A stretch of DNA of 31,839 nucleotides from NCBI GenBank assembly GCA_937907055.1, contig CALCTW010000008.1:1-31839 (forward strand), written 5' to 3'. The translations under genes were made by a program, and so were the position numbers. The notes below the pieces were generated by a model, which saw nothing but the letters and a program-made list of their open reading frames with translations, was not told where the DNA came from and ran no database searches. Below, in pieces: positions 3,401 through 31,415 of the stretch; within the stretch, counting starts at the first letter, position 1; each line of letters starts with the position of its first letter. Source of the stretch: an uncultured Clostridia bacterium (GTDB lineage: Bacteria; Bacillota; Clostridia; Christensenellales; Aristaeellaceae).

Positions 3401-5734
3401 TCATGCCTTTTCCGGCTCGGGAGAGTTGAGAAGAAGGTTCAGTTTTTCAAGCGCGGGCACCGCCTGCTTCAGCAGCTGCTCGGCATCCAGACGGCCGTCA
3501 CGCAGCAAAAGCCCAGTTTCACGGCCCATGGACAGCATGAGGCGCTTATCCGCCTTCGCGGCGGCATCATACAGGGCCGTCGGTTCCAGCTTCGTGTCCT
3601 TATCGAAGCGCATGACCAGTGAGCCGTTCATGTGCGTGATGCGGTTGATGCCCAGCCTGCGGGCTTCGGCACGCGCGTGCGCGATCTCGATCAGATTGAC
3701 GACACACTGCGGCGGCTCGGCAAAGCGGTCGATGATCTCCTCCAGCACATCCTCGCGGTCCTCCCGGTTATCGATGGCCGCGATGCGCTTGTAGATCTCC
3801 ATGCGCTGGGCCGCGCCGGATACATAATTGGACGGCAGATAGGCATCGATCTTGAGCTCGATCTTGGTCTCAACACGCTTGGCGACCTGTTCGCCGTTCC
3901 CGGCGCGGGCCTCGCGCACAGCCTCCTCAATGAGCTTGCAGTACATATCATAACCCACCTGAGAGACATTGCCGCTCTGCTCGGGACCGAAGATATTGCC
4001 CGCGCCGCGGATCTCCAGATCGCGCATGGCGATGCGGAAGCCGCTGCCGAAGGCGGTGAACTCACGGATGGCATCCAGACGCTTCTGCGCGGTCTCGCTG
4101 AGCATCTTATCCGCGCGGACGGTGAAATAGGCGTACGCCGCGCGTGTGGAACGGCCGACACGGCCGCGGAGCTGATAAAGCTGACTGAGACCGAAATGAT
4201 CCGCGTCATAGATGATCATGGTATTGGCGTTGGGCACATCCAGACCGTTCTCGATGATGGTGGTGCACAGCAGTACATCGAACTTGCCTTCATAGAAGTC
4301 CAGCATCACGTCTTCCAGCTGCTGTTCCTTCATCTGACCGTGGCCGATCGCGATCCTGGCCTCCGGCACAAGCGCCTTCAGACGGCTGCGGAAGGCCTCG
4401 ATGGAAGAGACGCGGTTGTACAGGAAATACACCTGTCCGCCGCGGCCAAGCTCGCGCACGATGGCGTCGCGGATCACGGTCTCGTTATAATCCAGCACAA
4501 AGGTCTGCACGGGGAAACGCTCTTCCGGCGGCGTTTCCAGCAGACTCATGTCACGCACGCCCACCATGCTCATATGCAATGTGCGCGGAATGGGCGTGGC
4601 GGACAGGGTGAGCACATCCACCATGTTTTTGATGTTCTTGATGCTCTCCTTGTGACCGACACCGAAGCGCTGCTCCTCATCCACGATGAGCAGCCCCAGA
4701 TTTTTGAACTGCACATCCTTGCCCAGCAGCCGGTGCGTGCCCACCACGATATCCGTCTTGCCGGACTTGACATTTTCAAGCGTCTGCTTCTGCGCGCTGC
4801 TGTTGCGGAAACGCGACAGTACATCCACCTGGACAGGGAAGGTCTTGACACGCTTTAAAAGATTATAGTAATGCTGCTGCGCCAGAATGGTGGTCGGCGC
4901 GAGGATGGCCACCTGCTTGCCGTCCATGACGGCCTTGAAGGCGGCGCGGAAAGCGACTTCGGTCTTGCCGTAGCCCACATCGCCGCACAAAAGACGATCC
5001 ATATTGAGCGGGCTTTCCATGTCCTGCTTGATATCCCGTACGGCACGGGCCTGATCGGGCGTGAGCTCGTAGGGGAACAGATCCTCAAACTGACCCTGCC
5101 ACGGGCTGTCCGGCCCGAAGGCATAGCCGGGGTTGTTCTGACGGGAGGCGTAGAGCTGCACAAGATCAAACGCCAGCTTCTTCAGGCCGGACTTGACCTT
5201 GCTCTTGGTCTTTTCCCAGTCACCGCCGGAAAGAGAATTGATCTTCGGCGGGGTATCGGTATTGCCGATAAACTTCTGCACCCGGTCGAACTGATCGGTG
5301 GGGACATAAAGCTTATCATTGCCCTGATACTGAATGAACAGATAATCGCGGTAGGTGCCCTCTGTCTGCAGCCTGACCGTGCCGCGGAAGACGCCGACAC
5401 CGTGGCTTTCATGCACCACGTAGTCGCCTTCTTTAAGATCGGTAAACGCGTCGATCCGCTCGCCGGCGTTCCGGCGCTGACGGCGCCGCTGATGACCGGT
5501 GCCGAAGATATCCCCGTCGCCGATCAATACGAAATCCTTGCTTTCAAAGCCCTGATGCTGGGTGATGGGATAGATGGCGATATCATATTCCCTGTTTTCG
5601 GCCATCTGCTCCTCCGTAATGAAGGGCACATCCACCGAAAGCTGCTGCAGCGCGGTACGAAGGCGTTCGCCGCGGTTATCACCGCCGGAAAGCAACGCGA
5701 TCTTCTTGTTTTCTTTGCGCCAGTCCGCGATATC
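3401..5734 (-). CDS. mfd: Transcription-repair coupling factor Mfd, part downstream of the in-frame TAG (RID, DEAD/helicase translocase, TRG, D7)
   Basis: The track ORF 3401..5695 contains ...[14 protein letters not shown]...[19 protein letters not shown]...[11 protein letters not shown]...SATPIPRTL...[11 protein letters not shown]... The 13 codons 5696-5734 ([13 protein letters not shown]) are in the same frame directly after the TAG. TGA stop. Confidence 0.93.
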
Positions 5735-7006
5735 CTAAGCCAGTTCCTTGATCCGGCTGTCATAACGCGGCGCGGGCGTGCTCTCCAGCTTCAGAGGCGC
5801 GGACGCCTGATCGATCAGGCCGGAGGTGCCGTGCAGAAATTCCTGCAGGGTGATCAGGGTAAACTGTCTGAGACGCGGCAGCATCTCATCCACCGACCAC
5901 TGCGCGCCCAGCATTTCAGGCACAGCCTGACCATGCTCCATGGCAGCCTTTAATTCCTCGGCAAAGCCGGCTTCACGATCCCGGCAGCGGCCGATGGCAT
6001 TCTCAGGGTAATCAAAAACGAGCACGCAATCCTGCAGCCAGTCCGCCAGCAGCTCCGGCCGCGGATAGACCGTACCGGCCCACAGCGGCAGCTGAGAGAA
6101 CGGGAAGCCTTTCTCTGCCTCCTCCGCGTCATCCGCCATGCCGGAAAGACCGGTACGCAGCGCGCGCGGAACATTGCCGCGCTCAAAGATCACGGCAGGG
6201 TCACTTTCGGCTTCATCGCCGTCATCAAAATCAAAACGGCCGCCCTCCAGCACATCGCGGGGCAGGCGGGCGCTCTGCGCCCGGATGGCCTCCCGCATGG
6301 CAGAAGCCACACGCGCGCCCTCCCCTTCCGGGATCAGGAATTCATACGCCGGACAGATCGTGACTTCATCCAGCCGTTCATCACTGCGCTGGGAGATGCA
6401 ATCGAACCGGCGGATGGAATCGACCTCCGTATCGAAAAACTCGATACGGATGGCGGTCAGCTGATCCGGCGGGAACACATCCACGATCTCACCGCGAAGC
6501 GCGCACTGTCCGCGGCCCTCCACCATATCGGCGCGGGTATAACCGCAGCGCAGCAGCCGGTCGATCAGCACGCCCGGCTCAGTCTCATCCCCCACCCCGA
6601 TGGTGACACAGGCTTCCTTGAAACGGGCAAGGGGCATCATGGGCTGCAGCAGCGTTTCCGCCGAGATTGAGAGGAATGTGATCTCCCCCCGTACGGCGCG
6701 GGAAAGGATGGACAGACGCTGGATCTCTTTTTCGCGGCCGCCGGTCATGTGGGCGAATGTGTTTTCTCTGGCCGGCAGCATGGCCGCGCGGTCCTCCAGC
6801 CACACACCGGCGTCATCCGCCACATGCATGGCCTGCTTTTCACCGGAGGAGACATAGATCACCGGTCTGCCGGTCTCCCTGAGCGCGCGGCACGCGAAAG
6901 GAACGCGCTGTCCCTCGGACATCTCAAACAGCGCGCAGCTCTCATGATCTCTGATCTTGTCAAACGCCGCCTGCCAGGCAGGCAGCATCGCGGAAAGTAT
7001 ATTCAT
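5735..7006 (-). CDS. mfd: Transcription-repair coupling factor Mfd, N-terminal part (UvrB-homology D1-D3), ending at the in-frame TAG 5735-5737
   Basis: 423-aa ORF with the Mfd N-terminal module (...GYTRADMVEGRGQCALRGEIVDVFPP...IRIEFFDTEVDSIRRFD...). It is in the same reading frame as 3401..5734. Both parts together give 1201 codons, a normal Mfd length, and the gene lies immediately downstream of pth as in Firmicutes. Confidence 0.92.
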   Translation of the reverse strand: MNILSAMLPAWQAAFDKIRDHESCALFEMSEGQRVPFACRALRETGRPVIYVSSGEKQAMHVADDAGVWLEDRAAMLPARENTFAHMTGGREKEIQRLSILSRAVRGEITFLSISAETLLQPMMPLARFKEACVTIGVGDETEPGVLIDRLLRCGYTRADMVEGRGQCALRGEIVDVFPPDQLTAIRIEFFDTEVDSIRRFDCISQRSDERLDEVTICPAYEFLIPEGEGARVASAMREAIRAQSARLPRDVLEGGRFDFDDGDEAESDPAVIFERGNVPRALRTGLSGMADDAEEAEKGFPFSQLPLWAGTVYPRPELLADWLQDCVLVFDYPENAIGRCRDREAGFAEELKAAMEHGQAVPEMLGAQWSVDEMLPRLRQFTLITLQEFLHGTSGLIDQASAPLKLESTPAPRYDSRIKELA

Positions 7007-7026: not shown

Positions 7027-7629
7027 TTACAGCGTATCGGGAACGGGCGGCTTCTGCTTGCCGGGCTTTTTATTGAAGCGATTCATCGTGGTATCGATGC
7101 CGTTCTTCACCCAGCACAGCACGGCATCCGCCGCCAGATTATACATATCAAAAGCGATCTTGCGGTCCTCGGGCGTATCAAAGTGCCCCAGCACCCAGTC
7201 CTTCAGATCCCAGCCTTCCTTCGCCGCGCCCATGCCCAGACGGATACGCGGAAAATCGCCGCTGCCGGTGCACTGGATGATATGGCGCAACCCGTTATGC
7301 GTGCCGGGGCCGCCCTTGGCGCGCAGACGCATCTGACCGAACGGCTGATCGATATCATCCGAAAGCACGATGATATCGCTGATATCGACCTTGTACCAGT
7401 TCATGGCGTCAACGAACGTGAAGCCGGAAAGATTCATATAGGTCTGCGGCTTGATGAGCACGATCTTTTCGCCCTCATAGACGCCTTCGCCCACTGTGGC
7501 GCGGCACTTGAGTTTTTTGACCGGAATAAAAAGCCGGTCGGAGAGGATATCGATCACATCCCAGCCCGCGTTGTGACGGGTGTGCTGATATTCATTGCCC
7601 GGATTGCCCAGGCCGATAATAAGCTTCAT
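7027..7629 (-). CDS. pth: Peptidyl-tRNA hydrolase
   Basis: 200-aa ORF beginning MKLIIGLGNPGNEYQHTRHNAGW... and continuing ...MNLSG...VLSDDIDQPFGQMRLRAKGG.GTHNGL. The pth-mfd arrangement is conserved. TAA stop. Confidence 0.95.
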   Translation of the reverse strand: MKLIIGLGNPGNEYQHTRHNAGWDVIDILSDRLFIPVKKLKCRATVGEGVYEGEKIVLIKPQTYMNLSGFTFVDAMNWYKVDISDIIVLSDDIDQPFGQMRLRAKGGPGTHNGLRHIIQCTGSGDFPRIRLGMGAAKEGWDLKDWVLGHFDTPEDRKIAFDMYNLAADAVLCWVKNGIDTTMNRFNKKPGKQKPPVPDTL

Positions 7630-9514: not shown

Positions 9515-10132
9515 TTATAAAACACCGGTCAGATCAAACGGCGGCGTATAGCTTTTTTCCGCCGCTTCTTTTTCCTGCGTGAAGCCCGTGAGCCCCAGGG
9601 CCTCGAACCGCTCCAGCACGCGCTCATACTCCCGGTCATTCACGCGCCGGTCCAGCGGAGACGGCAGCGAAACACCCTCCGGCGGCGTATACTGCCGCAT
9701 CAGGGAGACCGGGATCCGCGGGCAGTTGGCGGCGATCCACTCCAGCACACGGAGCGAATCCATGGTGCAGCCGGGCAGCACCAGATGACGGATGAGGGTG
9801 CCCTTCTTCATGAGACCGTCGTCATCATAGACCGGCGCGCCGGTCTGACGGATCATCTCAAGAATAGCTCCCGAGGCATTCTCGAAATAATCGGGCGCGC
9901 CGCAGCAGAGCTGCGCGATCCTGGGCGAAAAATGCTTGAGATCCGGCAGATAGATATCAATGATACCATCCAGCGCCTTTAAGGTCTCCTCCCGCTCATA
10001 GCCGGAGGTGTTCCACAGAAGCGGAACAGCCGGGCGGTAGATCTTCAAAGCCTTCAGGACCTGCGGCACGAAATGCGTGCCGGTGACAAAATTGATGTTA
10101 TGCACCCCGGCCGCCTCCAGACGGCGCAGGAT
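9515..10132 (-). CDS. Radical SAM protein, PflX/pyruvate formate-lyase-activase-like, part downstream of the in-frame TAG
   Basis: The track ORF 9515..10105 (..HNINFVTGTHFVPQVLKAL...WNTSGYE...DIYLPDLKHFS...LIRHLVLPG...) plus in-frame codons ILRRLEAAG directly after the TAG. TAA stop. Confidence 0.85.
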   Translation of the reverse strand: MLRRLEAAGVHNINFVTGTHFVPQVLKALKIYRPAVPLLWNTSGYEREETLKALDGIIDIYLPDLKHFSPRIAQLCCGAPDYFENASGAILEMIRQTGAPVYDDDGLMKKGTLIRHLVLPGCTMDSLRVLEWIAANCPRIPVSLMRQYTPPEGVSLPSPLDRRVNDREYERVLERFEALGLTGFTQEKEAAEKSYTPPFDLTGVL

Positions 10133-10384
10133 CTATGCCAGGGCTTCCGGCGAGACCTGCTTGCCGGCGCGTCCCCGGCTGATCTCCTGATTCTGGCAGA
10201 AGATGCACTTGAGCGTACAGCCGGCGAAAAAAACAGCGCCGCTGCCGCGGGTGCCGCTGATACACGGCTCCTCCCACAGATGCGGCGCCGCCCGGGCCAC
10301 CAGCATCTCATCCGTACAGGCACAAAAACCTTCGGCGGTTTTCCTGTCCGCCCCGCACCGGCGGGGACAAAGATCGCATTTCAT
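10133..10384 (-). CDS. Radical SAM protein, N-terminal part with the CxxxCxxC cluster, ending at the in-frame TAG 10133-10135
   Basis: I start at ATG 10384 (MKCDLCPRRCGADR...), which has GGAGG 9 nt upstream. It contains the radical-SAM motif GCTLKCIFCQN. It is in the same frame as 9515..10132, and together they give 289 codons, the normal length for this family. Confidence 0.85.
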   Translation of the reverse strand: MKCDLCPRRCGADRKTAEGFCACTDEMLVARAAPHLWEEPCISGTRGSGAVFFAGCTLKCIFCQNQEISRGRAGKQVSPEALA

Positions 10385-16598: not shown

Positions 16599-16855
16599 AA
16601 CGGCGCGAGGATTCACGGGAACCATATTCAGGACCGTGTGAAACAGCAAAGGTGATAACAGGCACCGCGCGTCATGATCATCCAGCCGGACAGCCGTATG
16701 GGATGATGACCGGTGATCAGGGATCAGTCAAAATATTTTCTGAGGGGCCAGGCATCGCGGAAGTCAAAGCGCTTTTCAAAAAAGCCGCTGCACTTACCGA
16801 TGATGAAGCCATTGAGCAGGGCGCACACGACCGTACCGGCCTTGACACCTTGAAA
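16599..16855. repeat. Left copy of a 257-bp direct repeat (13 mismatches against 17956..18212, no indels)
   Basis: Aligned by hand. The offset is exactly 1357 bp at both ends. Confidence 0.9.
16724..16855 (-). pseudogene. Orphan 3' fragment (last 43 codons plus stop) of a YczE-like membrane-protein gene
   Basis: The reverse strand translates to FQGVKAGTVVCALLNGFIIGKCSGFFEKRFDFRDAWPLRKYFD*, compared with the intact gene end FEGVKAGTVVCALLNGFIIGKCSGFFEKRFDFRDAWPFRKYFD*. There is no upstream coding continuation, because the AT-rich islet begins at 16856. Confidence 0.85.
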
Positions 16856-16859
16856 TTCC

Positions 16860-17276
16860 TTATTCTATCGAAATATAGATTCCAAGTCCCCCTTCAGATG
16901 CAGAAATACTCAAAATCACATTATCTTTTTTTAAGACAACACCAATTGCAACATCTTCTTTTTTATCAAGAACGCTATGATATCCTAAGTCTTTTAATCC
17001 CTCTATATATTTTCCTGCTTCTTCCATGCTTATATCAGAATAGAAAACTGCGTATTTTCCATTATCACTATCATCTATCACATAATCAGCAATTCCGAAA
17101 GAAGGCTTTATGATATTATCAGTGAATCTGTTTTCAGGCCACTCAGCTATTTCTACTATTCTTTCTTCAAGATTCGTATTTGATTTATTCACTTCATTCT
17201 TTGGTAAACCACAGCCCGTCATTAACATCAGCGTAAAAAAGCACAACAATAACAAAATGCTCAACTTACTCTTCAT
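16860..17276 (-). CDS. Hypothetical lipoprotein (AT-rich islet gene)
   Basis: 138-aa ORF with a signal peptide and lipobox-like LMLMTGC (MKSKLSILLLLCFFTLMLMTGCGLP). It overlaps the upstream XRE gene by 11 nt. Composition is clearly AT-rich relative to the flanks. Confidence 0.75.
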   Translation of the reverse strand: MKSKLSILLLLCFFTLMLMTGCGLPKNEVNKSNTNLEERIVEIAEWPENRFTDNIIKPSFGIADYVIDDSDNGKYAVFYSDISMEEAGKYIEGLKDLGYHSVLDKKEDVAIGVVLKKDNVILSISASEGGLGIYISIE

Positions 17277-17820
17277 CTTTCTTCCTCACATTCTCTCTGA
17301 ATAATCTTACAAATAGAAATCCTCCAACTGTGACCAATACTGTGCCAATCACTAATATTGACATTGAAAGCATATTGGGGCTTGTTGACTCAATATAGAT
17401 ATTAGTCAGTGCATCAGCTTGTCCAATAATACCCGATGAAGAAACCTTCTTACTTATAATAAATCCGATATCACAAATAATGAACCCCGACACAATCAAA
17501 AGAATGGCTCTTATAAATCTTCGTTTTAGTCTGTTTTTTTCATAATCTGCAATAATTATTGAAGCTTCTATCGCATTATCTGCTTCTTTATGTGTTATTT
17601 CTTCCTTGTCACTGATTCTACATTGTATAACTTCCATAAGGCTTAATCCAAACACTTTAGAGATATCCTCGAACTTTGACACCTCCGGAAGACAAAGCGA
17701 GCGTTCCCACTTACTAACAGCAGCGGTAGACACATTTAATTTTACGGCAAGTTGCGTCTGTGTCATATTTTTTCTTTTTCTTAGGTCTGTTAAAAACGGT
17801 CCGAATTCTTGTGGTACCAT
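17266..17820 (-). CDS. Membrane-anchored XRE-family helix-turn-helix transcriptional regulator
   Basis: The track ORF starts at GTG 17829, but that GTG is part of GGAGGTG. I prefer ATG 17820 (MVPQEFGPFLTDLRKRKNMTQTQLAVKLNVSTAAVSKWERSLCLPEV...), which has a typical HTH_3 motif followed by two predicted TM helices. Confidence 0.8.
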   Translation of the reverse strand: MVPQEFGPFLTDLRKRKNMTQTQLAVKLNVSTAAVSKWERSLCLPEVSKFEDISKVFGLSLMEVIQCRISDKEEITHKEADNAIEASIIIADYEKNRLKRRFIRAILLIVSGFIICDIGFIISKKVSSSGIIGQADALTNIYIESTSPNMLSMSILVIGTVLVTVGGFLFVRLFRENVRKKDEE

Positions 17821-17955
17821 TCTTATCACCTCCCAAGAAAAAATACCATTTCACTAAATATTAGTAAAACGACCTATGGTTGAATTGTAGTAGAATCAAG
17901 TTTTATCGTATGTATAAGCGGTTAATTCTAATATTTCTGCTGCACCCTCTTGCAG

Positions 17956-18212
17956 AACGGCGCGATGCTTCATGGGAACCATATTCAGGACCGCGTGAAA
18001 CAGCAAAGGTGATAACAGGCACCGCGCGTCATGATCATCCGGCTGGACAGCCGTATGGGATGATGGCCGGTGATCAGGGATCAGTCAAAATATTTCCGGA
18101 ACGGCCAGGCATCGCGAAAGTCAAAGCGCTTTTCAAAAAAGCCGCTGCACTTACCGATGATGAAGCCATTGAGCAGGGCGCACACGACCGTACCGGCCTT
18201 GACACCTTCAAA
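17956..18212. repeat. Right copy of the 257-bp direct repeat (covers the last 43 codons of the intact membrane-protein gene plus 125 bp downstream)
   Basis: See the left copy. I counted about 95 percent identity (13 of 257 mismatches). Confidence 0.9.
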
Positions 18213-19689: not shown

Positions 19690-19698
19690 TGCTATAAT
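19690..19698 (+). promoter_or_regulatory. Extended -10 (TGcTATAAT) upstream of trmO
   Basis: ctaTGCTATAATcg lies about 25 nt upstream of ATG 19723. Confidence 0.4.
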
Positions 19699-20500: not shown

Positions 20501-20608
20501 TTCCGTGGTGTATTCTATTTATTTCTCCTGATACGCTTCGCTTGCGGACGGTTTTTATCGCGCAGGCGGCAAATAGACCCGATATCATTTCCGGTGAGGT
20601 GTACATCT

Positions 20609-23416
20609 ATGAAGAATCGAAAATTCGGCACTGGTCTGCGCGCTGCGATCCTCGCGTTCCTGATCGCGGTGATTCTGTTCGTATTGCCTGTGCTGACCGG
20701 CTCCGCCGCGCAGGCCGCGTCGAATTCCTATGTGAAGACGAATCAGGCCTCCGTCAATTTCAGAAAAGGAGCAAACCTGTCCTCCGACGTGTGGGCATCC
20801 CTGCCCAGCGGCTGGGTGCTGAAGTATAACGGCACCAGCATCAAGGACGGCGGCTATACCTGGCTGAGCGTGACCGCCAATATTCCCGGACATCTGTACA
20901 CCAACTATTCCGGCTATATTTCCTCTTCCTTTGTGACCACGCTGACCACCGCGGAAGCCAACCAGTGGGAGAGCTACCCCGTGCAGAAGGGCTGCACCCC
21001 CAGCCCCGTTCCGGCGGTATCCGGCAGCTATGCCATCATCACCGCGGACGGCGTTAACATGCGCTCCTACGCGCCCGGCGGCGATGTGATGTGCGTGATC
21101 AAGCAGAATGTGGTCGTGCGCGTCATCAGCGCGCCCACCAACAGCTACGGCTGGTTCTATATCAACTACAACAATATGAACGGCTATGTGTGGAACGAGT
21201 TCGCCCGTCTGCTCACCGATGAAGAGCTGATCCAGCGCGGCCTGATGACCGCCACGCCCTCCTTCGTGACCGCGACGCCCACGCATTCCTCCGGCAGCGG
21301 CGACGGCATCTGCAAACTGGCCAAGGACGCTGTTCGTTTCCGTTCGACCCCGAACGGCAATATCATCGCCACCCTTTCCAAGGGCACCACGTTCACCTAC
21401 TGGGGCACCGGCACCATGGGCAGCGACGGTTATCTGTGGTTCCAGGTCTCCTACAACGGCACGATGGGCTATGTGCGTAAGGACATGCTGACCTTCCTTG
21501 ATCCCAGCGGCAAGGTGACCACGGCTCCCACCATTTCAAAGAACACCCCCACTCCGGCCCCCACCACCACGGTGATCCCGGACGCGACCGAGTATGTGAT
21601 CCTGACGGCCGGCGGCATCAACTTCCGCAGGACCGCGGGCGGTGACATTCTGGGCCGCCTTGACAAGGGCACGATCCTGCCCTATCACGGCACCGACAAC
21701 ACCGGCAAGTGGGCGCTGGTATATTCCAATATCTATGGTCTTGGCTATGTGAGCACCGATTATACCAAGAAGTATAATCCTCCCGGCAGCAACACACCCA
21801 CGCCCGCGCCTGTCGTGACGCCCACCCCGGCGCCTCTCACGAACGGTTATGTGCTGATCACCAAGAACGCCGTCAACCTGCGCGCGCAGACTTCCACCTC
21901 CTCCAATGTTGTGGCGCAGCTGAGCAACGGCACGGTCTGCTATCTGACGCAACCGCCGATCATGTCCGGCAGCTATATGTGGTATCCCGTGCGCACCATG
22001 AATAACTTAAACGGCTATGTGCGCGGCGATGTGGCCTATGTGCTGGCTGACTGGCAGGTGCAGTATTATCTGCAGCACGGCGTTGTGCCCACGCCTTCCG
22101 CCGGACCTACCTCCACCCCCAGCGGCAACAGCCCGTATATCCGCATCACAGCTTCCGGCACGATCAATGTGCGTTCCTCTTCCACCACCACCAGCAGCGT
22201 GGTCGGCACCACCTCCAACGGACGCGTGTACAAGTATCTGGCCACCGCCAAGGTCGGCAGCTACACCTGGTACAAGATCCAGTACACCTCCTCCAAGGTG
22301 GGCTGGGTGCGCAATGATCTGATGAAGGTAATGAGCTGGGCGGAATATTACGCCTGGGCCGGAACCGCTACCCCCACCAAGGGCAACACCGTATCCCCCG
22401 TGATCACACCTTCTGTGACCTCTCCCTATTCCTCCGATCTGAGCGATATGGCCGTGACCACCGTTGAGGGCCTGAATGTCCGCAGCGGCGCCGGTACCAG
22501 CTTTACCCGCGTGGGCAACATCAGCGCAAAGGGCACTTATGTGACCTACCTGCAGAAGTCTTCCACCGTGGGCAATGAGACCTGGTACTTTATCGAATCC
22601 GGCAATATGCAGGGTTGGGTCCTCAGCAAGTACATCAACATCTACACCAACCGTCAGAAGACGGCTTACCTGCAGAGCGGCGATCCTTATGTGATCCCCG
22701 AAGCCAGCTACACCACGCTGAGCCTTGGCAGCACCGGCAATGCCGTGACCGTTCTCCAGAAGGAACTGGTGACCAAGGGCTACCTGAGCGCCGCTGATGT
22801 GACCGGTCAGTACCTGAGCAGCACGGTGAACGCCGTGAAGCAGTTCCAGGCTGCCAAGGGCCTGACTGTGGACGGCATCGCGGGTGACGCCACCCAGCAC
22901 GCGCTGTTCAACACCGTTCCCGCCGGCTCCAATCAGGGCAGCACGGTCATTCCCGACCTGAAGCCCGTTGAAATGGTCGACTGGGTGACCGGTGATATCC
23001 AGAAGGTGTGGCTGAAGGGTGAAACTGCCATCGTCACCGATGTTGAGACCGGCCTTTCCTTCCGCGCGAGGCGCTGGAGCGGCGGTCTGCACGCTGACGT
23101 TGAGCCGCTGACCGCGGCTGACTCCGCTGTGATGTGCAAGATCTACGGCGTTTCCATCGCCCAGGATATCGCGGACCTGAATCTGTATCAGCGTCATCCC
23201 ATCTGGGTCACCATCGCCAACCGTACCTTCGCGGCTTCCATGTATGGCTGCCCGCACAACTATCCCGAGGGAGACACGATCCCCGATAACAACTTCTACG
23301 GTCAGTTCTGCATTCACTTTGTGAACAGCCGTGTCCACCGTACTGAAAAGATCGATGCCGATCATCAGGCCGCGATCAAGTATGCTTATCAGCACAGCAT
23401 CAGCGGACAGAAGTAA
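20609..23416 (+). CDS. Large secreted cell-wall-associated protein: about 9 SH3b (SH3_3) repeats, a PG_binding_1 domain and an uncharacterised C-terminal domain of about 190 aa
   Basis: I start at ATG 20609 (MKNRKFGTGLRAAILAFLIAVILFVLPVLTGSAAQA, a signal peptide). SH3b-like modules recur (..VNMRS......V...K....V.V.......GW..I.YN...GYV....). PT-rich linkers separate them. The PG_binding_1 domain reads LSLGSTGNAVTVLQKELVTKGYL...VKQFQAAKGLTVDGIAGDATQHALF. TAA stop plus a terminator. Confidence 0.85.
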   Translation: MKNRKFGTGLRAAILAFLIAVILFVLPVLTGSAAQAASNSYVKTNQASVNFRKGANLSSDVWASLPSGWVLKYNGTSIKDGGYTWLSVTANIPGHLYTNYSGYISSSFVTTLTTAEANQWESYPVQKGCTPSPVPAVSGSYAIITADGVNMRSYAPGGDVMCVIKQNVVVRVISAPTNSYGWFYINYNNMNGYVWNEFARLLTDEELIQRGLMTATPSFVTATPTHSSGSGDGICKLAKDAVRFRSTPNGNIIATLSKGTTFTYWGTGTMGSDGYLWFQVSYNGTMGYVRKDMLTFLDPSGKVTTAPTISKNTPTPAPTTTVIPDATEYVILTAGGINFRRTAGGDILGRLDKGTILPYHGTDNTGKWALVYSNIYGLGYVSTDYTKKYNPPGSNTPTPAPVVTPTPAPLTNGYVLITKNAVNLRAQTSTSSNVVAQLSNGTVCYLTQPPIMSGSYMWYPVRTMNNLNGYVRGDVAYVLADWQVQYYLQHGVVPTPSAGPTSTPSGNSPYIRITASGTINVRSSSTTTSSVVGTTSNGRVYKYLATAKVGSYTWYKIQYTSSKVGWVRNDLMKVMSWAEYYAWAGTATPTKGNTVSPVITPSVTSPYSSDLSDMAVTTVEGLNVRSGAGTSFTRVGNISAKGTYVTYLQKSSTVGNETWYFIESGNMQGWVLSKYINIYTNRQKTAYLQSGDPYVIPEASYTTLSLGSTGNAVTVLQKELVTKGYLSAADVTGQYLSSTVNAVKQFQAAKGLTVDGIAGDATQHALFNTVPAGSNQGSTVIPDLKPVEMVDWVTGDIQKVWLKGETAIVTDVETGLSFRARRWSGGLHADVEPLTAADSAVMCKIYGVSIAQDIADLNLYQRHPIWVTIANRTFAASMYGCPHNYPEGDTIPDNNFYGQFCIHFVNSRVHRTEKIDADHQAAIKYAYQHSISGQK

Positions 23417-23468: not shown

Positions 23469-23542
23469 GCCGAAACAGTTTCAATTTCAAACAGGCGTTT
23501 CTCATGCCCTTCCCATTTTTCGTGGCGAATCGATGAAAAATA

Positions 23543-23551
23543 TGTTATACT
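23543..23551 (+). promoter_or_regulatory. Extended -10 (TGtTATACT) upstream of the LRR surface-protein gene
   Basis: aatatgttatactgtc lies about 55 nt upstream of ATG 23606. Confidence 0.35.
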
Positions 23552-23605
23552 GTCATCAGAATGCAGACAGTAACTGCCGGAGGCAAAACAATAGGAGGAA
23601 CAACG

Positions 23606-24040
23606 ATGAAAACAAAGCTGATGTGCATAGCGCTGCTGGTGATGACCCTGCTGATGACGGCCTTCACCGCATCAGCCGATGACGGCGGAAGCTTTAGTGA
23701 TAACCTGACCTGGGCATTCGATGCCGCGAACAATACGCTGACGATCTCGGGCAGCGGGAATATGGAAGACTTCAGTTCTGTTTCGCTGCCCCCGTGGTAT
23801 GATCATACCGACATGATCAAAACAGTCATCATCGAACCAGGTGTGACGAGCATCGGAGCTTATGCCTTCTATTCTGCGGAAGCGGAAACAGTCTATGCTG
23901 CCGACAGCGTGACGAGCATCGGCGAGTATGCATTTTTCCGGAGCAAGCTGAAGAGCTTCCATATGCCGTCCGGCATCCGGAGCATTGGCTCCTCCGCATT
24001 TTTTTGGCTCAGCTTGAACAACTGTCCATCGGCGATCTGA
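23606..24040 (+). CDS. BspA-like leucine-rich-repeat surface protein, N-terminal fragment (signal peptide plus first LRRs), truncated by a frameshift at the T7 run 23999-24005
   Basis: ATG 23606 with AGGAGG at 23593-23598. The product begins MKTKLMCIALLVMTLLMTAFTASADD...NLTWAFDAANNTLTISGSGNM...VTSIGAYAF...VTSIGEYAF...IRSIGSSAFF, then reads 11 out-of-frame codons and TGA. Confidence 0.8.
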   Translation: MKTKLMCIALLVMTLLMTAFTASADDGGSFSDNLTWAFDAANNTLTISGSGNMEDFSSVSLPPWYDHTDMIKTVIIEPGVTSIGAYAFYSAEAETVYAADSVTSIGEYAFFRSKLKSFHMPSGIRSIGSSAFFWLSLNNCPSAI

Positions 24041-27000
24041 AAGCCTATCTGAACTGCAACTACACGGATGAATACGCGTGGCCGCTATACAGCGTGTCAG
24101 AGCCGGTCACGCTTATCGTGAATGGCAATGAAGCGACCGTTCTGGAGATCCCGGAGGGCGTCAGCCAGATCGGTGATTTTGCCTTTTTCCATTGTAAGAG
24201 TATTACCGACCTGAAGATCCCGGAGGGCGTGCTGAGGATCGGCTGCAATGCTTTCTGTGACTGTACCAATCTGGTCGAGGTTTCTATGCCGGCGTCACTG
24301 AAAACGATCGGCGATGGAGCGTTTGCCAACACAGACAATATCCGCCGGGTCAGCATTGCCAGCATTGAATCCTGGCTGAATCTATCATTTGAAAACGAGT
24401 ATGATACCTGGTCGCTCCCGAACTGGATCAACGGCAGTAACATAAAGGACATGCGTCTATACCTGAATGGGCAGGAATTGACGGAGATCCAGATTCCCGG
24501 AAGCATCAAGACCATTCGCAGAAACGCTTTTGAGAATTTCGATCGTATCTCCCGCGTAGTCATCAATGAAGGCGTTGCCCGCATTGAAGAAAATGCTTTC
24601 GCGCACATGAGCGGACTGAAGACCCTGAGCCTGCCTGCCAGCATCCAATCGATCGCTCCCACTGCTTTTTGGAGTTCATTGGAGATTGACAGCTTGCTGC
24701 TGAGTGACCTGACAGCCTATCTGACCAGCATGCCCGCGGAAAATGACAACTATCATGGCATTCTGGGTGAGAACGGGCAGGTTTGGCTGAACGGCAAAGA
24801 GCTGTTCGATCTGATCATCCCTGAGGGTTTCACGCGCGTTCCTGCTAATGCCTTCTACAATTGGACCAATCTGCGCACGATTTCAATGCCCAATACCCTG
24901 CAGACCATCGGCACAAATGCGTTTTACCATTGTTCCTCGGTCAGCAAGATCGTGATCCCCGGCGGTGTGACGAGCATTGGAAATTCCGCGTTCAGCAGAT
25001 GCAACGGCTTGCAGGAACTGTCTCTGCCTGCCAGCCTGACAAGTGTCGGCAGTCATTGCTTTGGCGGAAGCGTCAGCAGACTGGACCTCGAAAGCCTCGA
25101 AGCGTATCTGAATTGCAGCTATGGTACCAACAGTGCGCCGCTTGAAGGTGGCACGAGCGGCCGTGCCATCTATGTGAACGGCGAGCTGCTGACCCAGGTC
25201 ATCATCCCCGATACGGTACAGAAGGTGCCCCCGCATGCATTTGATAATTGCCGTGATATAACGGAGGTCATTTTTGCCGGACCAACCACTGAGATCGATG
25301 AATACGCGTTCTTCTTCTGCAGCGGTCTGAAAACGATTGAGCTTCCCGCAGGCCTGCAAACGATCCGAAAATTAGCATTTGCATATTCCGGACTCGAATC
25401 GGTCTACATCCCGGACAGCACAACCAAAATCGAGCATCAGGTCTTTTCCCAGTGTGAAAAGCTGAGCCGTGTCAGCCTGCCTGCCAGTGTGGTCATCGAC
25501 CAGAATGCCTTCCCGGGTTCGTATACCCCGCTCGAGGTAGATTACCACGGCGATCGTATCGACGCCGCGAATCTGCTGGTGCTGGGACCATGGAACGAAG
25601 CATTGACCAACCCCGACGCAGTCTGGCACTATCGCCCGAACGGCAAGTGCGGCGAAGACCTGACCTGGGTCATTGATGACAGCGGCACACTGATCATCAG
25701 CGGTACCGGCGAAATGACTGCTTATACCGCCAGCCTGCAGCCCTGGGATCCGAAGGCGTTCAGCCGGGTCAGGATCGAAGAGGGCGTGACCACCATCAGC
25801 GACTACGCGTTTTATAACGCTCCGGTCGACATCATTCAGCTGCCCGAGTCGATGGAGACCTTCGGCGTTCACATCGTGACCTCTCATCCCATCGTGCTCT
25901 GCCCGGAATTCAGCAATGCCGATTATTGGGCATACTCCAACCAGTTTGAGACTGTCTATTCCGATCAGCTGGACATGGATCCGTTCTTCCGGGAGCATGG
26001 AAATATCGAGTTGTTCAGCGACACTACGCTGTACCGCGGCACCGTACACCGAATCACAGCCTGCGTGTTCCCGCTTGAAGCAAATGAGCTCCTGAAGTGG
26101 ACCTCCTCCGACCCAACCGTAGCCGAGGTGGATCAGAACGGTCAGGTGACTGCCGTCAACCATGGCCGAGCTGTCATCACGGCAGAATATGCCGGTGTTT
26201 CGGACTGCGTGACCGTGACAGTCAACAATTTTGAGGATGTGGGCGTGATCCACATGGACGAAACGCCGGAATTCCTCCGGCTGGGTGAAACGCTGCAGTT
26301 GTCTTTCCGCACCGTACCTCAGGATAACAGCCTCACATTCACCTATACCAGCACAGACAGCAGCGTCCTTGACGTTGACGCCAATGGTAAGGTGACCGCA
26401 GTCGGTCACGGCTATGCCTGCGTCTGGGTAGAGGCAGAAGGTGTGACCGCGGCAACCGGCCCCATCTATGTCTATACCCCCATTACAGATGTGACCCTCC
26501 CTGAAGAATTCTGGGGCGTGGCAAAGTCCTTCACGCAGATACACTGGGACATTGAGCCTGCAAACGCGAACCCCCTCTGGATCTGGACCTCGGAGCATTC
26601 CGCCCACGCAGCAGTGACGGTTTCCGAGGATGGACTGGTGAGCTGTTTCGTGCCCGGTGATATCACCATCACCATGACGGACAGGATCACCGGTCTCAGC
26701 GCTTCAACGCTGGTGCATGTCTGCCGTCCGGTCACATCCATCGAGATGCCGGAGGAGCTTACCTTTGCGGAATGCACACGATCCTACCAGTTCGAGTCTG
26801 TGGCCGTGACCATGAACGCGCGCTACATCAACCATCTGATCGTTTACACCAGTGACGACAACAACGTGGCAACCGTGACCGATGACGGCCTGATGACGAT
26901 CGTGGGACCCGGTACGGTGAATATCACCACCCGGGCCGAGAGCGGTGTATCAGCCTCCTGCAAGGTAACGATCCTGCCGGAGCACGACCGTAAAACGACG

Positions 27001-27714
27001 ACTCCCGCAGTTCTTCCCACCTGTGTGGATACGGGCAACACCGAATACTTTACCTGCGATGATTGCGGCGCATTCTTTGGATTGGTTAACGACGAATATG
27101 TAAGCATTGAGGAAAACAGCTGGATCGTTCCCGCGATTAATCACCAGCATTGGGAAAAGGCCGATGTGACAGCTGTCGAGCCCACCTGCACCGAAGACGG
27201 CTGCATGGAATACGCTGTATGCGATGATTGCGGCGCCTATTTGCTGGTGGAGGATGAAACGGTGACAGTGATCGAGGAAAACAGCTGGATCATTCCGGCG
27301 CCGGGTCATACTGAGGTCGTTGATGAAGCGATCGCGCCTACCTGCACCGAAACAGGCCTGACTGAGGGCAGCCACTGTACTGCCTGTCAGGAAGTATTTG
27401 TTGCCCAGGAGATCCTCCCTGCCACACACCGTCATGTGATGCAGTCCGGCGCGTGCTGCACCTGCGGCCGGTCATTCGACACAACAGGCGCGAAGGTGCT
27501 CACACTTCCTTCCCTGCTCACAAGCATTGCTGACAATGCCTTCGAAGGAATCTTCGCGGAGATCGTTGTGATCCCAGCCGGGTGCACGAAGATCGGCGAA
27601 CGTGCCTTTGCCGATTGCGCCGCGTTGCGGTATGTGTTCATGCCCGCGGACATCGACATTCATGACAGCGCGTTTGATGGCTGCGAGAATACGATCGAGT
27701 TTATCATCCAATAA
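24004..27714 (+). CDS. BspA-like LRR (LRR_5) / Big_2 / Cys-rich-repeat surface protein, main body (continues 23606..24003 if the T-run is 8 rather than 7)
   Basis: 1236-aa ORF. It has many IP.GV..IG..AF..C..L LRR_5 units and about 4 Big_2-like modules (e.g. TSSDPTVAEVDQNGQVTAVNHGRAVITAEY). Three PTC..(T/E).G....C..CG Cys-rich repeats lie around 27000-27480, followed by terminal LRRs. TAA stop plus a terminator. Confidence 0.88.
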   Translation: MAQLEQLSIGDLKAYLNCNYTDEYAWPLYSVSEPVTLIVNGNEATVLEIPEGVSQIGDFAFFHCKSITDLKIPEGVLRIGCNAFCDCTNLVEVSMPASLKTIGDGAFANTDNIRRVSIASIESWLNLSFENEYDTWSLPNWINGSNIKDMRLYLNGQELTEIQIPGSIKTIRRNAFENFDRISRVVINEGVARIEENAFAHMSGLKTLSLPASIQSIAPTAFWSSLEIDSLLLSDLTAYLTSMPAENDNYHGILGENGQVWLNGKELFDLIIPEGFTRVPANAFYNWTNLRTISMPNTLQTIGTNAFYHCSSVSKIVIPGGVTSIGNSAFSRCNGLQELSLPASLTSVGSHCFGGSVSRLDLESLEAYLNCSYGTNSAPLEGGTSGRAIYVNGELLTQVIIPDTVQKVPPHAFDNCRDITEVIFAGPTTEIDEYAFFFCSGLKTIELPAGLQTIRKLAFAYSGLESVYIPDSTTKIEHQVFSQCEKLSRVSLPASVVIDQNAFPGSYTPLEVDYHGDRIDAANLLVLGPWNEALTNPDAVWHYRPNGKCGEDLTWVIDDSGTLIISGTGEMTAYTASLQPWDPKAFSRVRIEEGVTTISDYAFYNAPVDIIQLPESMETFGVHIVTSHPIVLCPEFSNADYWAYSNQFETVYSDQLDMDPFFREHGNIELFSDTTLYRGTVHRITACVFPLEANELLKWTSSDPTVAEVDQNGQVTAVNHGRAVITAEYAGVSDCVTVTVNNFEDVGVIHMDETPEFLRLGETLQLSFRTVPQDNSLTFTYTSTDSSVLDVDANGKVTAVGHGYACVWVEAEGVTAATGPIYVYTPITDVTLPEEFWGVAKSFTQIHWDIEPANANPLWIWTSEHSAHAAVTVSEDGLVSCFVPGDITITMTDRITGLSASTLVHVCRPVTSIEMPEELTFAECTRSYQFESVAVTMNARYINHLIVYTSDDNNVATVTDDGLMTIVGPGTVNITTRAESGVSASCKVTILPEHDRKTTTPAVLPTCVDTGNTEYFTCDDCGAFFGLVNDEYVSIEENSWIVPAINHQHWEKADVTAVEPTCTEDGCMEYAVCDDCGAYLLVEDETVTVIEENSWIIPAPGHTEVVDEAIAPTCTETGLTEGSHCTACQEVFVAQEILPATHRHVMQSGACCTCGRSFDTTGAKVLTLPSLLTSIADNAFEGIFAEIVVIPAGCTKIGERAFADCAALRYVFMPADIDIHDSAFDGCENTIEFIIQ

Positions 27715-27728
27715 TTCAGAAAACATCC

Positions 27729-27762
27729 ATACCGCAGACGGAACTTCCGCTGCGGTATTTTT
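27729..27762 (+). terminator. Rho-independent terminator
   Basis: ataccgcag, a 12-nt loop, ctgcggtat, then tttt. Confidence 0.8.
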
Positions 27763-27958
27763 GCGCGCCATCGTGAATGAACTCCATGATACAAGCATTC
27801 ATTTCTCGTGTTCCGCAAGGAATCTGCTTCCCGGCTTTCTTATCGTAACCTATGTATGACACTCGCAGACAAAACAGTTTCAATTTCAACAGACCCTATT
27901 GACAATCAAATAAAAAGAATTATCATTAATACCGACAATCAACAAAGGAGAAAGAAAT

Positions 27959-29062
27959 ATGCTTAAGAAATGGATCTCAATTCTTATCGTGATAATCTGC
28001 CTCGTTCCGCTCGCGGCTTCCGCCTACACGATGGACGATATATACTGGTCTCTGGAAAGAGAAGACGGAAAGACCGTCCTTTACCTCAAGGGAATCAAAG
28101 GCTTCTCTTCTGATGATTCAGACAACCTTGTGATAACGACCCCCGTGGACAAGATCGTCTTTGCGATCCCGTATCCCGTATCCGATATATACAGGACCCT
28201 GCGCATTGATAAACTGTTTATTCCTTCTGTGCAGGAATATGCTGTGGAAGGCCCGCGCACGGTCTCGGACGGAATTTCCGTTGAAAATCATTTCTGGTTC
28301 CATGAGGTTGTTGTGATGGGAAACATCAAACAATGGCCGAACCTTAATAACGCCGTGATGTTCGATGATATCAGTGTCACGGTCAACGGAACGGTCGGCT
28401 TTATCCCCGCGGACAGTTTTTATCCGAGCGAAAACAGCTTCCAAAAATGCGCGTACAAAAACATTTCCCTGATCAGCAACGAGTATTACACCTTCGAAGA
28501 CGGTGTGCTTGAAGATTCGTTCACCGGCATGCCGATGTGGGCTTCTGAAGAGCATATTTTCTACGAAGAACCTTATTATTACATGTTCAACCGCGCGCAT
28601 GATGCCGTATCCCTCATTGATTACAGAGGAAAAAACACCGAATCGGAGTACTATCTTCCCGATACCACAAAGGATGGGTATCCTGTCCGTTGGATCTCCG
28701 GCCCCGCGCTCATTGCCATGAACCCTTATGATTTTACGAATGATCTGAACAAATTGTACGATAAGTTGTCGAGCGCGCAGGATCAGCTGGACCGCTGGAT
28801 CGCAGGCGGAAAAAAGACGGAAGAACAGATCAATAAGCAAAAAGAAAAGATCGATCAGTTACAGGCTGAGTATGATGCGATGTATGAGGAATCTCTGAAA
28901 ACGAGATACCGCAATACGCTGTATCTTGGGCAGAATGTCGAAGCCGTATCCGACTTTGACTCTGAGCTGCTTGACTTTGATATGCTCTATGTTCCTGTAA
29001 CATTGAAGCACTATGGTAAAGGATTGCTGGAATCAACACAAGCTGTTCGTTTCAATCCTTAA
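27959..29062 (+). CDS. Secreted hypothetical protein, paralogue 1 (degenerate LRR-like N-terminal part, C-terminal coiled-coil-like segment)
   Basis: 367-aa ORF with AAGGAG RBS and signal peptide MLKKWISILIVIICLVPLAASA. It is collinear with 29214..30317. GC is lower than in the flanks by eye. TAA stop. Confidence 0.8.
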   Translation: MLKKWISILIVIICLVPLAASAYTMDDIYWSLEREDGKTVLYLKGIKGFSSDDSDNLVITTPVDKIVFAIPYPVSDIYRTLRIDKLFIPSVQEYAVEGPRTVSDGISVENHFWFHEVVVMGNIKQWPNLNNAVMFDDISVTVNGTVGFIPADSFYPSENSFQKCAYKNISLISNEYYTFEDGVLEDSFTGMPMWASEEHIFYEEPYYYMFNRAHDAVSLIDYRGKNTESEYYLPDTTKDGYPVRWISGPALIAMNPYDFTNDLNKLYDKLSSAQDQLDRWIAGGKKTEEQINKQKEKIDQLQAEYDAMYEESLKTRYRNTLYLGQNVEAVSDFDSELLDFDMLYVPVTLKHYGKGLLESTQAVRFNP

Positions 29063-29213
29063 ATCTGTTCTTTTAAGAAAAACGGAAGGGTGTTCTGCTG
29101 ATATAACCCTAAAACCGTACGACCGGTAATGCATATCAACAATGTCAAGAAAACGGGGCAATTGATATCATAAATAATCAATTCACATTGAATACAACAA
29201 TGAGGGAAAAAGC

Positions 29214-30317
29214 ATGCTTAAGAAATGGATCTCAATTCTTATCGTAATCGTCTGTATCATTCCATTCGCGGCTTCCGCATACACAATGGATGATATCTTC
29301 TGGTCTCTTGAAAGAGAAGACGGGAAGACAGTTCTTTATCTCAAGGGTATCCGAAACTTCCCTTCCGATGGATCCTATGATTTGGTTGTGAATGTTCCTG
29401 CGGATAAAATCGTGTTTTCGGTCCCTTATTACGTTAAGGATCAATATTGGAGTCTACACATTGATAAACTGTATATTCCCTCCGTTTCGGAATATGCTGT
29501 AGAAAGCCGTGTACTCATCCATGATGATTTCTATTATGAAAACTATATTCACTATATCCATATCATTTTCATGGGAAATATAAATGAATGGCCGGATTTC
29601 AGAAACGCCTACTGCCCCCAATCATTTTCTGTTACGGTTAACGGAACGGTCGATTACATTCCTTCAAACGCTTTCTTCCCGGACGGATACAATGTTATGG
29701 ATCGGCTGTACGATAATGTCTCCCTGATCAGCAATGAACATTATACCTGCGAGAACGGTGTGCTTGAGGATTCCTTCACCGGCATGCCGATCTGGGCCTC
29801 TGAAGAGAACATTTTCTATGAAGAGCCGTATTACTACATGTTCAACTGCGCGCATGATGCCGTGTCCATCCTTGATTACAAAGGGAAAACGACCGAACCG
29901 GAATTCTATATTCCCGACACGACAAAGGCCGGTTATCCTGTCCGTTGGATCTCCGGCCCCGCGATCATTGCCATGAATCCCTATGATTTTACAGATGATC
30001 TTGCTAAGGCACTGGATAAGCTGGAAAGGGCACTGGATCAGTTGGATCGTTGGCTTGCCGGCGGGAAAAAGACAGAAGAGCAGATCAACAGGCAAATGGA
30101 AAAGATCAATGAATTACAGGCCGAATATGATGCTTTATATGAGGAATCTCTCAAAACGAGGTACCGCAATACACTGTATCTCGGACAGAACATCGAGGCT
30201 GTATCCGATTTCGATCCCGATCTGCTCAGATTTGACGCGATCTATGTTCCTGCCACGCTGACCCACTATGGCAAGGGGCTGCTGGATATGGAAAGTCGTC
30301 TCTATATCAATCCGTAA
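29214..30317 (+). CDS. Secreted hypothetical protein, paralogue 2
   Basis: 367-aa ORF with signal peptide MLKKWISILIVIVCIIPFAASA. It has the same length as paralogue 1 and aligns without gaps. TAA stop plus a terminator. Confidence 0.8.
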   Translation: MLKKWISILIVIVCIIPFAASAYTMDDIFWSLEREDGKTVLYLKGIRNFPSDGSYDLVVNVPADKIVFSVPYYVKDQYWSLHIDKLYIPSVSEYAVESRVLIHDDFYYENYIHYIHIIFMGNINEWPDFRNAYCPQSFSVTVNGTVDYIPSNAFFPDGYNVMDRLYDNVSLISNEHYTCENGVLEDSFTGMPIWASEENIFYEEPYYYMFNCAHDAVSILDYKGKTTEPEFYIPDTTKAGYPVRWISGPAIIAMNPYDFTDDLAKALDKLERALDQLDRWLAGGKKTEEQINRQMEKINELQAEYDALYEESLKTRYRNTLYLGQNIEAVSDFDPDLLRFDAIYVPATLTHYGKGLLDMESRLYINP

Positions 30318-30327
30318 ACACACAAAG

Positions 30328-30358
30328 CCCGGAAGAGAGAACCTCTTCCGGATTTTTT
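30328..30358 (+). terminator. Rho-independent terminator
   Basis: ccggaagag, loop agaac, ctcttccgg, then a ttttttt. Confidence 0.85.
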
Positions 30359-30388
30359 TATGGACAGAAACAGAATGAGAAGAATGTA

Positions 30389-30417
30389 TTGAAAAATGCG
30401 TTTTTTTCCGTTACAAT
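30389..30417 (+). promoter_or_regulatory. Sigma-70-like promoter TTGAAA-17-TACAAT for the riboswitch-folT unit
   Basis: ttgaaa at 30389-30394, a 17-nt spacer, tacaat at 30412-30417. Confidence 0.6.
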
Positions 30418-30671: not shown

Positions 30672-31415
30672 ATGACAAAAACCGGATCTTCAGAACCGAA
30701 AGTTCTGCCCATTTGTTCCAAGCAGTACTGGCGTACAGCGCTCTCCCTTGTAAAGGATACAAGGATGCTCGTATTCGCGGCGCTGATCATCGCGCTGCGT
30801 GTGGCCGTCAAAACGCTGAAGCTGACCACGGGCACCATCTCTTTTACATTTGACTGCTATGTCAACTCGCTGGGCTCCATTGTGTACGGCCCGATCATGG
30901 GTCTGCTGGTGGGCGCGGTAAGCGATACGCTGGGATGCATCCTTGTTCCCAGCCCGACCAGCCCGTACTTTTTCCCGTTCATCTTTGTGGAGATGAGCAG
31001 CAGCTTCATCTTTGCCCTGTTCCTGTGGAAGCGTCCGCTTTCCCCCTCCAGAACGCTGCTGTGCAAATTCACGGTGAACATGTTCTGCAATGTCATCCTG
31101 ACCTCGCTGTTCATCAAGTGGTCCTACTCCTACTTTGGGATGGATAAGGTGTATAACCTTTTCAACCTGCAGCGGCTGGTGAAAAACATGATCACCTTCC
31201 CTGTGGAATCCATGCTGATCGTGCTGATCCTGCAGGCCGCGATCCCTGTATTGCAGCGGTGCGGGCTCAAATCCATCCTGCCGGTCAAAAACCGGCTGCA
31301 GAAAAAGCATTACTGGCTTATCGCGCTGCTGCTGGTCATTTCTGTGGGGCTGATCCTGCTGTACATTTTTGTGCTCAACGATCTGCTGAAGGCCAATAAT
31401 ATCAAACTGCTGTAA
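30672..31415 (+). CDS. folT: ECF-transporter S component, folate family (FolT-like), with an extra C-terminal TM helix
   Basis: 247-aa polytopic ORF (..LVFAALIIALRVAVK......FTF..YVNSLGSIVYGPIMGLLVGAVSDTLGC...). AAAGGAG RBS. The function is inferred mainly from the THF riboswitch directly upstream. TAA stop. Confidence 0.8.
   Translation: MTKTGSSEPKVLPICSKQYWRTALSLVKDTRMLVFAALIIALRVAVKTLKLTTGTISFTFDCYVNSLGSIVYGPIMGLLVGAVSDTLGCILVPSPTSPYFFPFIFVEMSSSFIFALFLWKRPLSPSRTLLCKFTVNMFCNVILTSLFIKWSYSYFGMDKVYNLFNLQRLVKNMITFPVESMLIVLILQAAIPVLQRCGLKSILPVKNRLQKKHYWLIALLLVISVGLILLYIFVLNDLLKANNIKLL

Follow-up and report, generated by a model that had tools for sequence, protein, structure and literature searches.

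We analyzed a 31,839-bp contig (CALCTW010000008.1; "the window" hereafter means this whole stretch) from a high-GC, Christensenellales-like species of uncultured Clostridia, in which mfd, the gene for the transcription-repair coupling factor, contains a single in-frame TAG codon. Our reading is that this species translates TAG as a sense codon, to which we assign a probability of roughly 70%. Translation of the TAG in mfd is strongly supported by comparison among strains and homologues, and the residue inserted is probably glutamate, although we hold this with less confidence than sense decoding itself. Two features of the window come first, and further TAG codons occur in the same species and in a related lineage (L085/L165):

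5735 to 5737, minus strand: in-frame TAG, codon 424 of mfd, seen on translation; an identical TAG occurs in strains L081-L084.
3401 to 7006, minus strand: complete mfd, 1201 codons through the TAG, with TGA as its true stop; the translated product matches TIGR00580 without a break over the TAG.

On the minus strand the site reads ...GAA CTG GCT TAG GAT ATC GCG..., with the TAG at 5737..5735. The open reading frames (ORFs) 5735..7006 and 3401..5695 lie in one frame, and translation of 3401..7006 runs without a frameshift and is interrupted by a single stop, at codon 424, so that the original prediction of one TAG within an otherwise intact mfd of 1201 codons was correct. With glutamate placed at the TAG, residues 151-1123 of Mfd match positions 1-906 of the 907 in the NCBIfam equivalog TIGR00580, at 1058 bits (cut-off 800). 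The expected modules, which had also been read from the sequence, are found as Pfam domains across the two halves: UvrB_inter, then CarD_TRCF_RID, DEAD, Helicase_C and TRCF. Gene callers render the gene as two products of 423 and 734 amino acids (aa).

A second gene with an in-frame TAG had been predicted 4.4 kb away, and it proves to encode a radical-SAM protein (9515..10384, TAG at 10135..10133):

10133 to 10135, minus strand: in-frame TAG, codon 84 of the radical-SAM gene, seen on translation and conserved in L081 and L082.
9515 to 10384, minus strand: radical-SAM (glycyl-radical-activase-like) gene, 289 codons through the TAG, stop TAA, identified by translation and profile match.

Both TAGs are genuine and have reached fixation in the species. 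Conspecific assemblies with mfd (L081-L084) come from four samples and are ~98% identical to the window in nucleotide sequence; the mfd TAG is present in 5/5 assemblies that cover the site (the window and these four) and the radical-SAM TAG in 3/3 (the window, L081 and L082). The window's 423-aa product had no exact match in a look-up, and the members of its 90%-identity cluster were used instead: four distinct N-terminal Mfd sequences, all exactly 423 aa long. Among database matches there was no full-length Mfd variant near the window species, the next match being 47% identical; a scan of GTDB species-representative genomes returned only relatives of ≤71% identity, all with uninterrupted mfd and neither TAG-bearing lineage among them, and a scan of metagenome contigs found only three short close relatives (L087-L089). 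An error of sequencing or assembly at 5735-5737, in whose favor nothing speaks beyond its prior probability, has next to no chance of being the explanation: it is refuted because the TAG is common to five independent assemblies, and the four N-terminal sequences end at the same length. Of the options in the original prediction, a base-call error falls with this result, as does a fresh nonsense mutation, since the TAG is fixed across strains and both halves of mfd are under purifying selection. Sense codons in sister genomes, which had been named as evidence that would count against translation, do occur at the genus and family level (S, N, G, D, A or T in the nearest species, with G in L085), but they do not refute it, because the conspecific strains all keep TAG.

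Strong purifying selection acts on mfd both upstream and downstream of the TAG. A comparison of the window with L081 puts the ratio of non-synonymous to synonymous substitution rates (dN/dS) at 0.028 upstream and 0.050 downstream, with a synonymous divergence (dS) of ~0.07; this comparison had been proposed as a check, and it gives no sign of relaxed selection in the downstream part. It bears directly on the possibility that the TAGs are nonsense mutations that became fixed, in which case mfd, the radical-SAM gene and the rest would be pseudogenes of recent origin; in favor of this one could cite the sense codons that orthologues of other species have at the TAG columns. Such decay is extremely improbable given a dN/dS of 0.03-0.05 on either side at this dS, the lack of frameshifts and of TAA or TGA, and the fact that 18/18 in-frame stops in the window species and the related lineage are TAG. 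The window species presents neither the relaxed downstream selection nor the private mutation nor the further lesions by which a pseudogene is recognized.

Other genes of the species carry TAG as well. Comparison with L081 shows 16 synonymous and 4 non-synonymous codon differences in the window's radical-SAM gene, whose orthologues in L085, L166 and L010 are uninterrupted (288-292 aa). Just beyond the window start, a YhaM/UPF0597-like gene of 425 codons (L081 17509..18786) contains an in-frame TAG at codon 171. A further site varies among strains:

21887 to 21889, plus strand: CAG, codon 432 of the SH3/peptidoglycan-binding gene 20594..23416 (940 codons); TAG in conspecific L167 and L168.

At this codon TAG in L167 and L168 and CAG in the window and L169 form a within-species polymorphism. 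Altogether, ~46 kb of the species hold three fixed and one polymorphic in-frame TAG, with no in-frame TAA or TGA and no frameshifts in those genes. The window carries chromosomal housekeeping genes, among them pth-mfd, ychF, birA, trmO, an ATP-binding cassette (ABC) exporter and a dihydroorotate-dehydrogenase-like gene, and the chromosomal setting of the species also includes dnaN. As a separate observation, the TAG of the SH3 gene arose with an adjacent change, GCG CAG to GCT TAG, a tandem GC-to-TT substitution (L167 8096-8101 versus window 21884-21889). Some candidate sites were set aside: the TAGs at 19694 (upstream of birA) and 13680, in long stop-to-stop frames, lie upstream of real starts and outside genes, and in L001-L013 what look like in-frame TAGs turn out to belong to spurious ORFs or 5' extensions, or to be true stops.

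Termination could in principle be retained if the TAG genes were split, with ribosomes stopping at TAG and restarting downstream, in mfd at the ATG at 5605, so that Mfd would consist of two chains, one N-terminal (UvrB-homology/D3) and one C-terminal (RID plus translocase). The segment on which this turns is:

5606 to 5734, minus strand: the 43 codons that separate the TAG from the next ATG (5605), untranslated if the gene is split; compared in five strains.

The annotated products of 423 and 734 aa would suit two chains, and a Shine-Dalgarno-like GGAGGA lies upstream of the ATG at 5605. It had been argued that independent expression of the C-terminal part is unlikely because no convincing ribosome-binding site precedes the TTG at 5695; the judgment stands but its argument does not, since with GGAGGA before the ATG at 5605 the lack of a binding site alone cannot rule out re-initiation. 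What argues against re-initiation is the pattern of selection in the 43 codons, which align with orthologues and in which the five strains differ only synonymously (codons 430, 438 and 446). At 5695 the other four strains have CTG in place of TTG, one of these three differences; the TTG is not a conserved start. In addition, a radical-SAM barrel cut after 83 residues, or a YhaM-like protein cut at residue 170, is unlikely to function as two chains, the same event would be needed in 3-4 genes with TAG every time, and the mfd of L085 would fall into nine pieces. We therefore regard split genes as quite improbable.

The residue is seen most clearly in the related lineage, where TAG is dense. It was found through a cluster of Mfd N-terminal fragments, 7/8 of whose members are 428 aa long, and is represented by L085 and by L165, which is 99.4% identical to L085 and comes from a different sequencing run. 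Gene order is as in the window (ATP-grasp, peptidoglycan-binding, radical-SAM, ABC, pth, mfd), and 10 kb contain 13-14 in-frame TAGs, of which the mfd frame has 8 in L085 and 9 in L165, with no TAA or TGA before its true TGA stop; the peptidoglycan-binding gene has 2 and nagA 3. All of these genes end in TAA or TGA. By codon counts, 14 TAG stand against 91 GAA and 118 GAG (TAG ~0.4% of codons). Among 80 standard-code homologues of Mfd, the residue at three of the TAG columns is glutamate in 80/80, 80/80 and 74/80; at a fourth site glutamate occurs in the closest relatives, and the remaining mfd sites hold variable polar residues. The window's own Mfd has glutamate at four of the L085/L165 TAG columns. 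In NagA of the L085 lineage, TAG stands at the glutamate of the "TLAPE" motif, which is conserved in 4/4 of the PDB NagA sequences shown. Column likelihoods over the L085/L165 mfd TAG sites give log-odds of +8.7 nats for Glu, -7.4 for Asp and -7.7 for Gln. On these alignments we conclude that TAG encodes glutamate in the L085/L165 lineage.

These columns also bear on pyrrolysine. UAG is the pyrrolysine codon, and genomes poor in TAG are typical of organisms that use it, so that a genome-wide pyrrolysine code of the kind known in some archaea would be in keeping with the scarcity of TAG here. It is nonetheless very improbable, as TAGs of the related lineage fall on invariant glutamate columns, some of them in catalytic or structural motifs, where a bulky lysine derivative is implausible, and no pyl or methylamine methyltransferase genes occur in the examined loci, which are a small part of each genome.

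The sequence preceding TAG is not random. No in-frame TAG follows a C, and in L165 the preceding base is A in 8/14 cases, against A at 9% of third positions (p=7e-6); in the window the corresponding codon pairs are GCT-TAG in mfd (5738-5740) and GCA-TAG in the radical-SAM gene (10136-10138). Selection on TAG decoding, avoidance of CTAG, or both are possible causes. Two other kinds of interrupted mfd were judged separately. In L087 (JAEEGL010857058.1, 595-597), a 74%-identical mfd has TAG at a strongly conserved tyrosine column (QQH*Y); it is off the glutamate pattern and creates the contig's only CTAG, a motif otherwise absent from the family, and we consider it probably an error or an ordinary, unconnected nonsense mutation. 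Fragmented Mfd on long contigs (L086, L174-L177) reflects frameshift-type breaks in long-read assemblies, not TAG; in L086, L174, L175 and L177 the breaks show overlapping ORFs with TGA or TAA stops, which mimic recoding in tables of protein length.

For the window species itself the columns are less decisive. The mfd column is E18/Q13/K8 in more distant homologues. At the radical-SAM column, 75 homologues have D 22, E 21, A 9, R 5 and Q 3 (D or E in 43/75), and both L085 and L010 have D there. Sister strains carry Q at the SH3 site, and the remaining SH3 repeats of the protein have S or G in the matching position. These columns are compatible with glutamate and favor it over glutamine only about tenfold by our own estimate from column frequencies, which is suggestive.

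The use of TAG as a stop, and of the tetranucleotide CTAG, was tallied over the whole contig:

1 to 31839, no strand: no CTAG and no gene terminating in TAG, by motif count and stop tally.

All ~22-24 real genes of the window end in TAA or TGA, other TAG-ending ORFs being shadows of larger genes, and no gene ending in TAG was found among ~40 genes of the species or among ~80 in subclade loci. The window has 0 CTAG sites against 54.8 +/- 6.5 in dinucleotide-preserving shuffles, and 13-22 kb loci of high-GC relatives have 0-3 against roughly 50-85 expected from base composition. CTAG is near-absent from all high-GC relatives (L001-L013, L081, L165, L166) and not from low-GC Clostridia loci (L014-L020), a pattern suggestive of a restriction or repair pressure acting across the family, which may explain why TAG is rare. 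In a neighbor-joining tree of Mfd, the window, L085, L166 (P0055), L010, L009 and P0057 form one subclade, within which the nearest relative of L085 is L010 (71.5% Mfd identity) and that of the window is L166 (65.7%). L166, L010 and L009 have no in-frame TAGs and no TAG stops (10-14 genes each).

Several of these observations weigh against our reading of sense decoding as glutamate. The lack of TAG stops does not discriminate and was rejected as evidence because of their family-wide rarity: in the 12 closest GTDB loci they number 4/148, a difference from the window species that is not significant. The two TAG-bearing lineages are not sisters and are interleaved with the TAG-free L166, L010 and L009; as their nearest relatives lack TAG, a single origin does not follow. 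In the window species TAG is sparse and every instance falls at a variable position, so that the assignment of its residue depends for the most part on the related lineage and a single acidic column. CAG alternates with TAG in both polymorphisms seen within a lineage, which would also fit TAG as glutamine. CAG to TAG is a transition and the commonest mutational route to TAG; with both recent gains coming from CAG, glutamine stays a candidate for the window species. Finally, no tRNA with anticodon CUA, and no tRNA gene at all, was present in the window or in the examined loci of either TAG lineage; tRNA scans of the window and 36 loci gave no CUA tRNA. Nor does a prfA locus, for release factor 1, lie within the ~46 kb covered for the species, a small part of its genome.

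Low density and variable sites also lend themselves to a different account, in which UAG is unassigned in the window species: release factor 1 (RF1) is lost, no dedicated tRNA exists, and near-cognate tRNAs (for Gln, Tyr, Lys, Trp or Glu) decode UAG slowly, a tRNA-Glu(CUA) being present only in the L085 lineage. Only variable positions, and genes of which little product is needed, would then tolerate TAG. The placement of every window-species TAG at a variable or linker column agrees with this, as do the sister lineages without TAG stops or in-frame TAGs, and recoded E. coli without RF1 is reported to resolve UAG by near-cognate mistranslation (PMC6207430). We consider it unlikely nonetheless, because the genes concerned are housekeeping genes under strong purifying selection in which TAG is fixed from strain to strain, which suggests that decoding is efficient enough for no cost to be visible.

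Sense decoding as glutamate would imply that UAG is not an efficient terminator in the window species and that mfd, the radical-SAM gene and the other TAG genes are made full-length. It would call for a tRNA with anticodon CUA charged with glutamate, which could derive, for example, from tRNA-Glu(CUC) by a single change, and for the loss or inactivation of RF1. Read-through, as offered in the original prediction, is upheld insofar as the TAG appears to be translated; a gene-specific signal is not, since the evidence favors genome-wide decoding in the species and its relative. Under a codon-capture model, family-wide depletion of CTAG and TAG would first have removed TAG stops, opening the way to RF1 loss and the capture of UAG. 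The proposed stages are family-wide elimination of CTAG and of TAG stops; TAG-free lineages; the window species, at a low-density stage with few tolerant sites (~3 fixed TAGs in ~46 kb); and the L085 lineage, at a high-density stage, where TAG may occupy roughly 6% of glutamate positions, including invariant catalytic or structural glutamates. That these gut and rumen Clostridia form a clade with an undescribed bacterial code, UAG for glutamate, whose members stand at successive stages of codon capture, is a proposition that we hold at about even odds. As a separate observation, ARAGORN reports an 86-nt "tRNA-Stop" with anticodon TTA at 7367-7452 (minus strand) of L005, a standard-code relative (a metagenome-assembled genome from sheep rumen), which could be either a false call or a gene of the ochre-suppressor type.

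Some further features of the contig were recorded. A tetrahydrofolate (THF) riboswitch at window 30436-30547, plus strand, was the only match of the Rfam scan (RF01831, 79 bits); the gene downstream, 30672..31415, encodes an S-component of the energy-coupling factor (ECF) type, probably of a folate transporter. One segment of low GC (~44%), at ~16855-17956, contains an HTH_3 regulator gene (17266..17829, minus strand); the L081 alignment offers nothing that corresponds to this segment, which is probably a strain-specific insertion. A block of ~7 kb at ~23500-30400 encodes BspA-type leucine-rich-repeat (LRR)/Big_2 surface proteins and two 367-aa proteins of no known family; as it is missing between the SH3 and ECF genes in L167 and L169, it is a strain-variable island. 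Within it, ORFs 23561..24040 and 24004..27714 both match LRR_5 in different frames, the change falling at a run of seven T (23998-24004), which reflects either a sequencing slip or a phase-variable frameshift.

Set against published surveys, a chromosomal bacterial code in which UAG specifies an amino acid, and especially glutamate, would if true be a new bacterial translation table. All bacterial changes known to Shulgina and Eddy (2021) reassign UGA, and a 2024 preprint counts three codes known in Bacteria. A 2026 screen of ~2.7 million assemblies reports bacterial ACA to Asp and CGG to Ala and no bacterial UAG reassignment, and treats TAA and TAG inferences as prone to contamination; the gTranslate preprint (2026) models only tables 4, 11 and 25 and for UAG mentions only the archaeal pyrrolysine code. 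In literature dated 2021-2026 we found no published reassignment of UAG in Bacteria, the only bacterial tables given by the 2026 screen and the gTranslate preprint being 4, 11 and 25. Under table 11 the genes are split (mfd into 423 and 734 aa, and in the L085 lineage into four or more pieces), which corrupts protein databases, and estimates of genome completeness may suffer. The clade may offer natural intermediates with which to weigh codon capture against the ambiguous-intermediate model, with extreme CTAG avoidance, removing TAG stops, as a possible driver. If true, the code would also be a natural counterpart of engineered RF1-free, UAG-recoded E. coli and a natural glutamate-inserting amber suppressor system of interest to genetic-code expansion, and it would isolate its bearers genetically from standard-code phages and plasmids with TAG stops.

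Among known systems, UGA to Trp (table 4; Mycoplasmatales and others) and UGA to Gly (table 25; Absconditabacteria/Gracilibacteria) are likewise chromosomal, lineage-wide changes of a stop into a sense codon, with in-frame stops in housekeeping genes and fragmented gene calls under table 11. Here, by contrast, the codon is UAG, and the genomes are rich in GC (55-60%) and appear unreduced; because the codon is UAG and not UGA, RF1 rather than RF2 would be expected to be dispensable. The archaeal UAG-pyrrolysine code of Kivenson et al. is likewise one in which all UAG are sense in TAG-poor prokaryotes and one that is hard to see from coding density; the present case differs in lying in Bacteria, with a canonical residue on glutamate columns and no pyrrolysine machinery in the examined loci.

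The same pairing of UAG with glutamate is found in eukaryotic nuclear codes, those of peritrich ciliates (table 30) and Blastocrithidia (table 31). In these, UAR is read as Glu, with UAG one step from GAG (PMC12153298). Such codes include UAA and use eRF1, whereas here only UAG would be affected and TAA is still a common terminator. Code 15 of gut phages (UAG to Gln; crAss-like and Lak phages) resembles the present case in reading UAG as sense and in its gut and rumen ecosystem, the phages reportedly using a suppressor tRNA. It differs from a bacterial chromosome (pth-mfd, ychF, dnaN) without phage genes, and the housekeeping context and the related lineage, with Gln at -7.7 against Glu at +8.7 nats, depart from code 15. 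Judged by sequence, the window case shows what marks a reassignment: in-frame codons in genes under selection and, in the dense lineage, a consistent residue.

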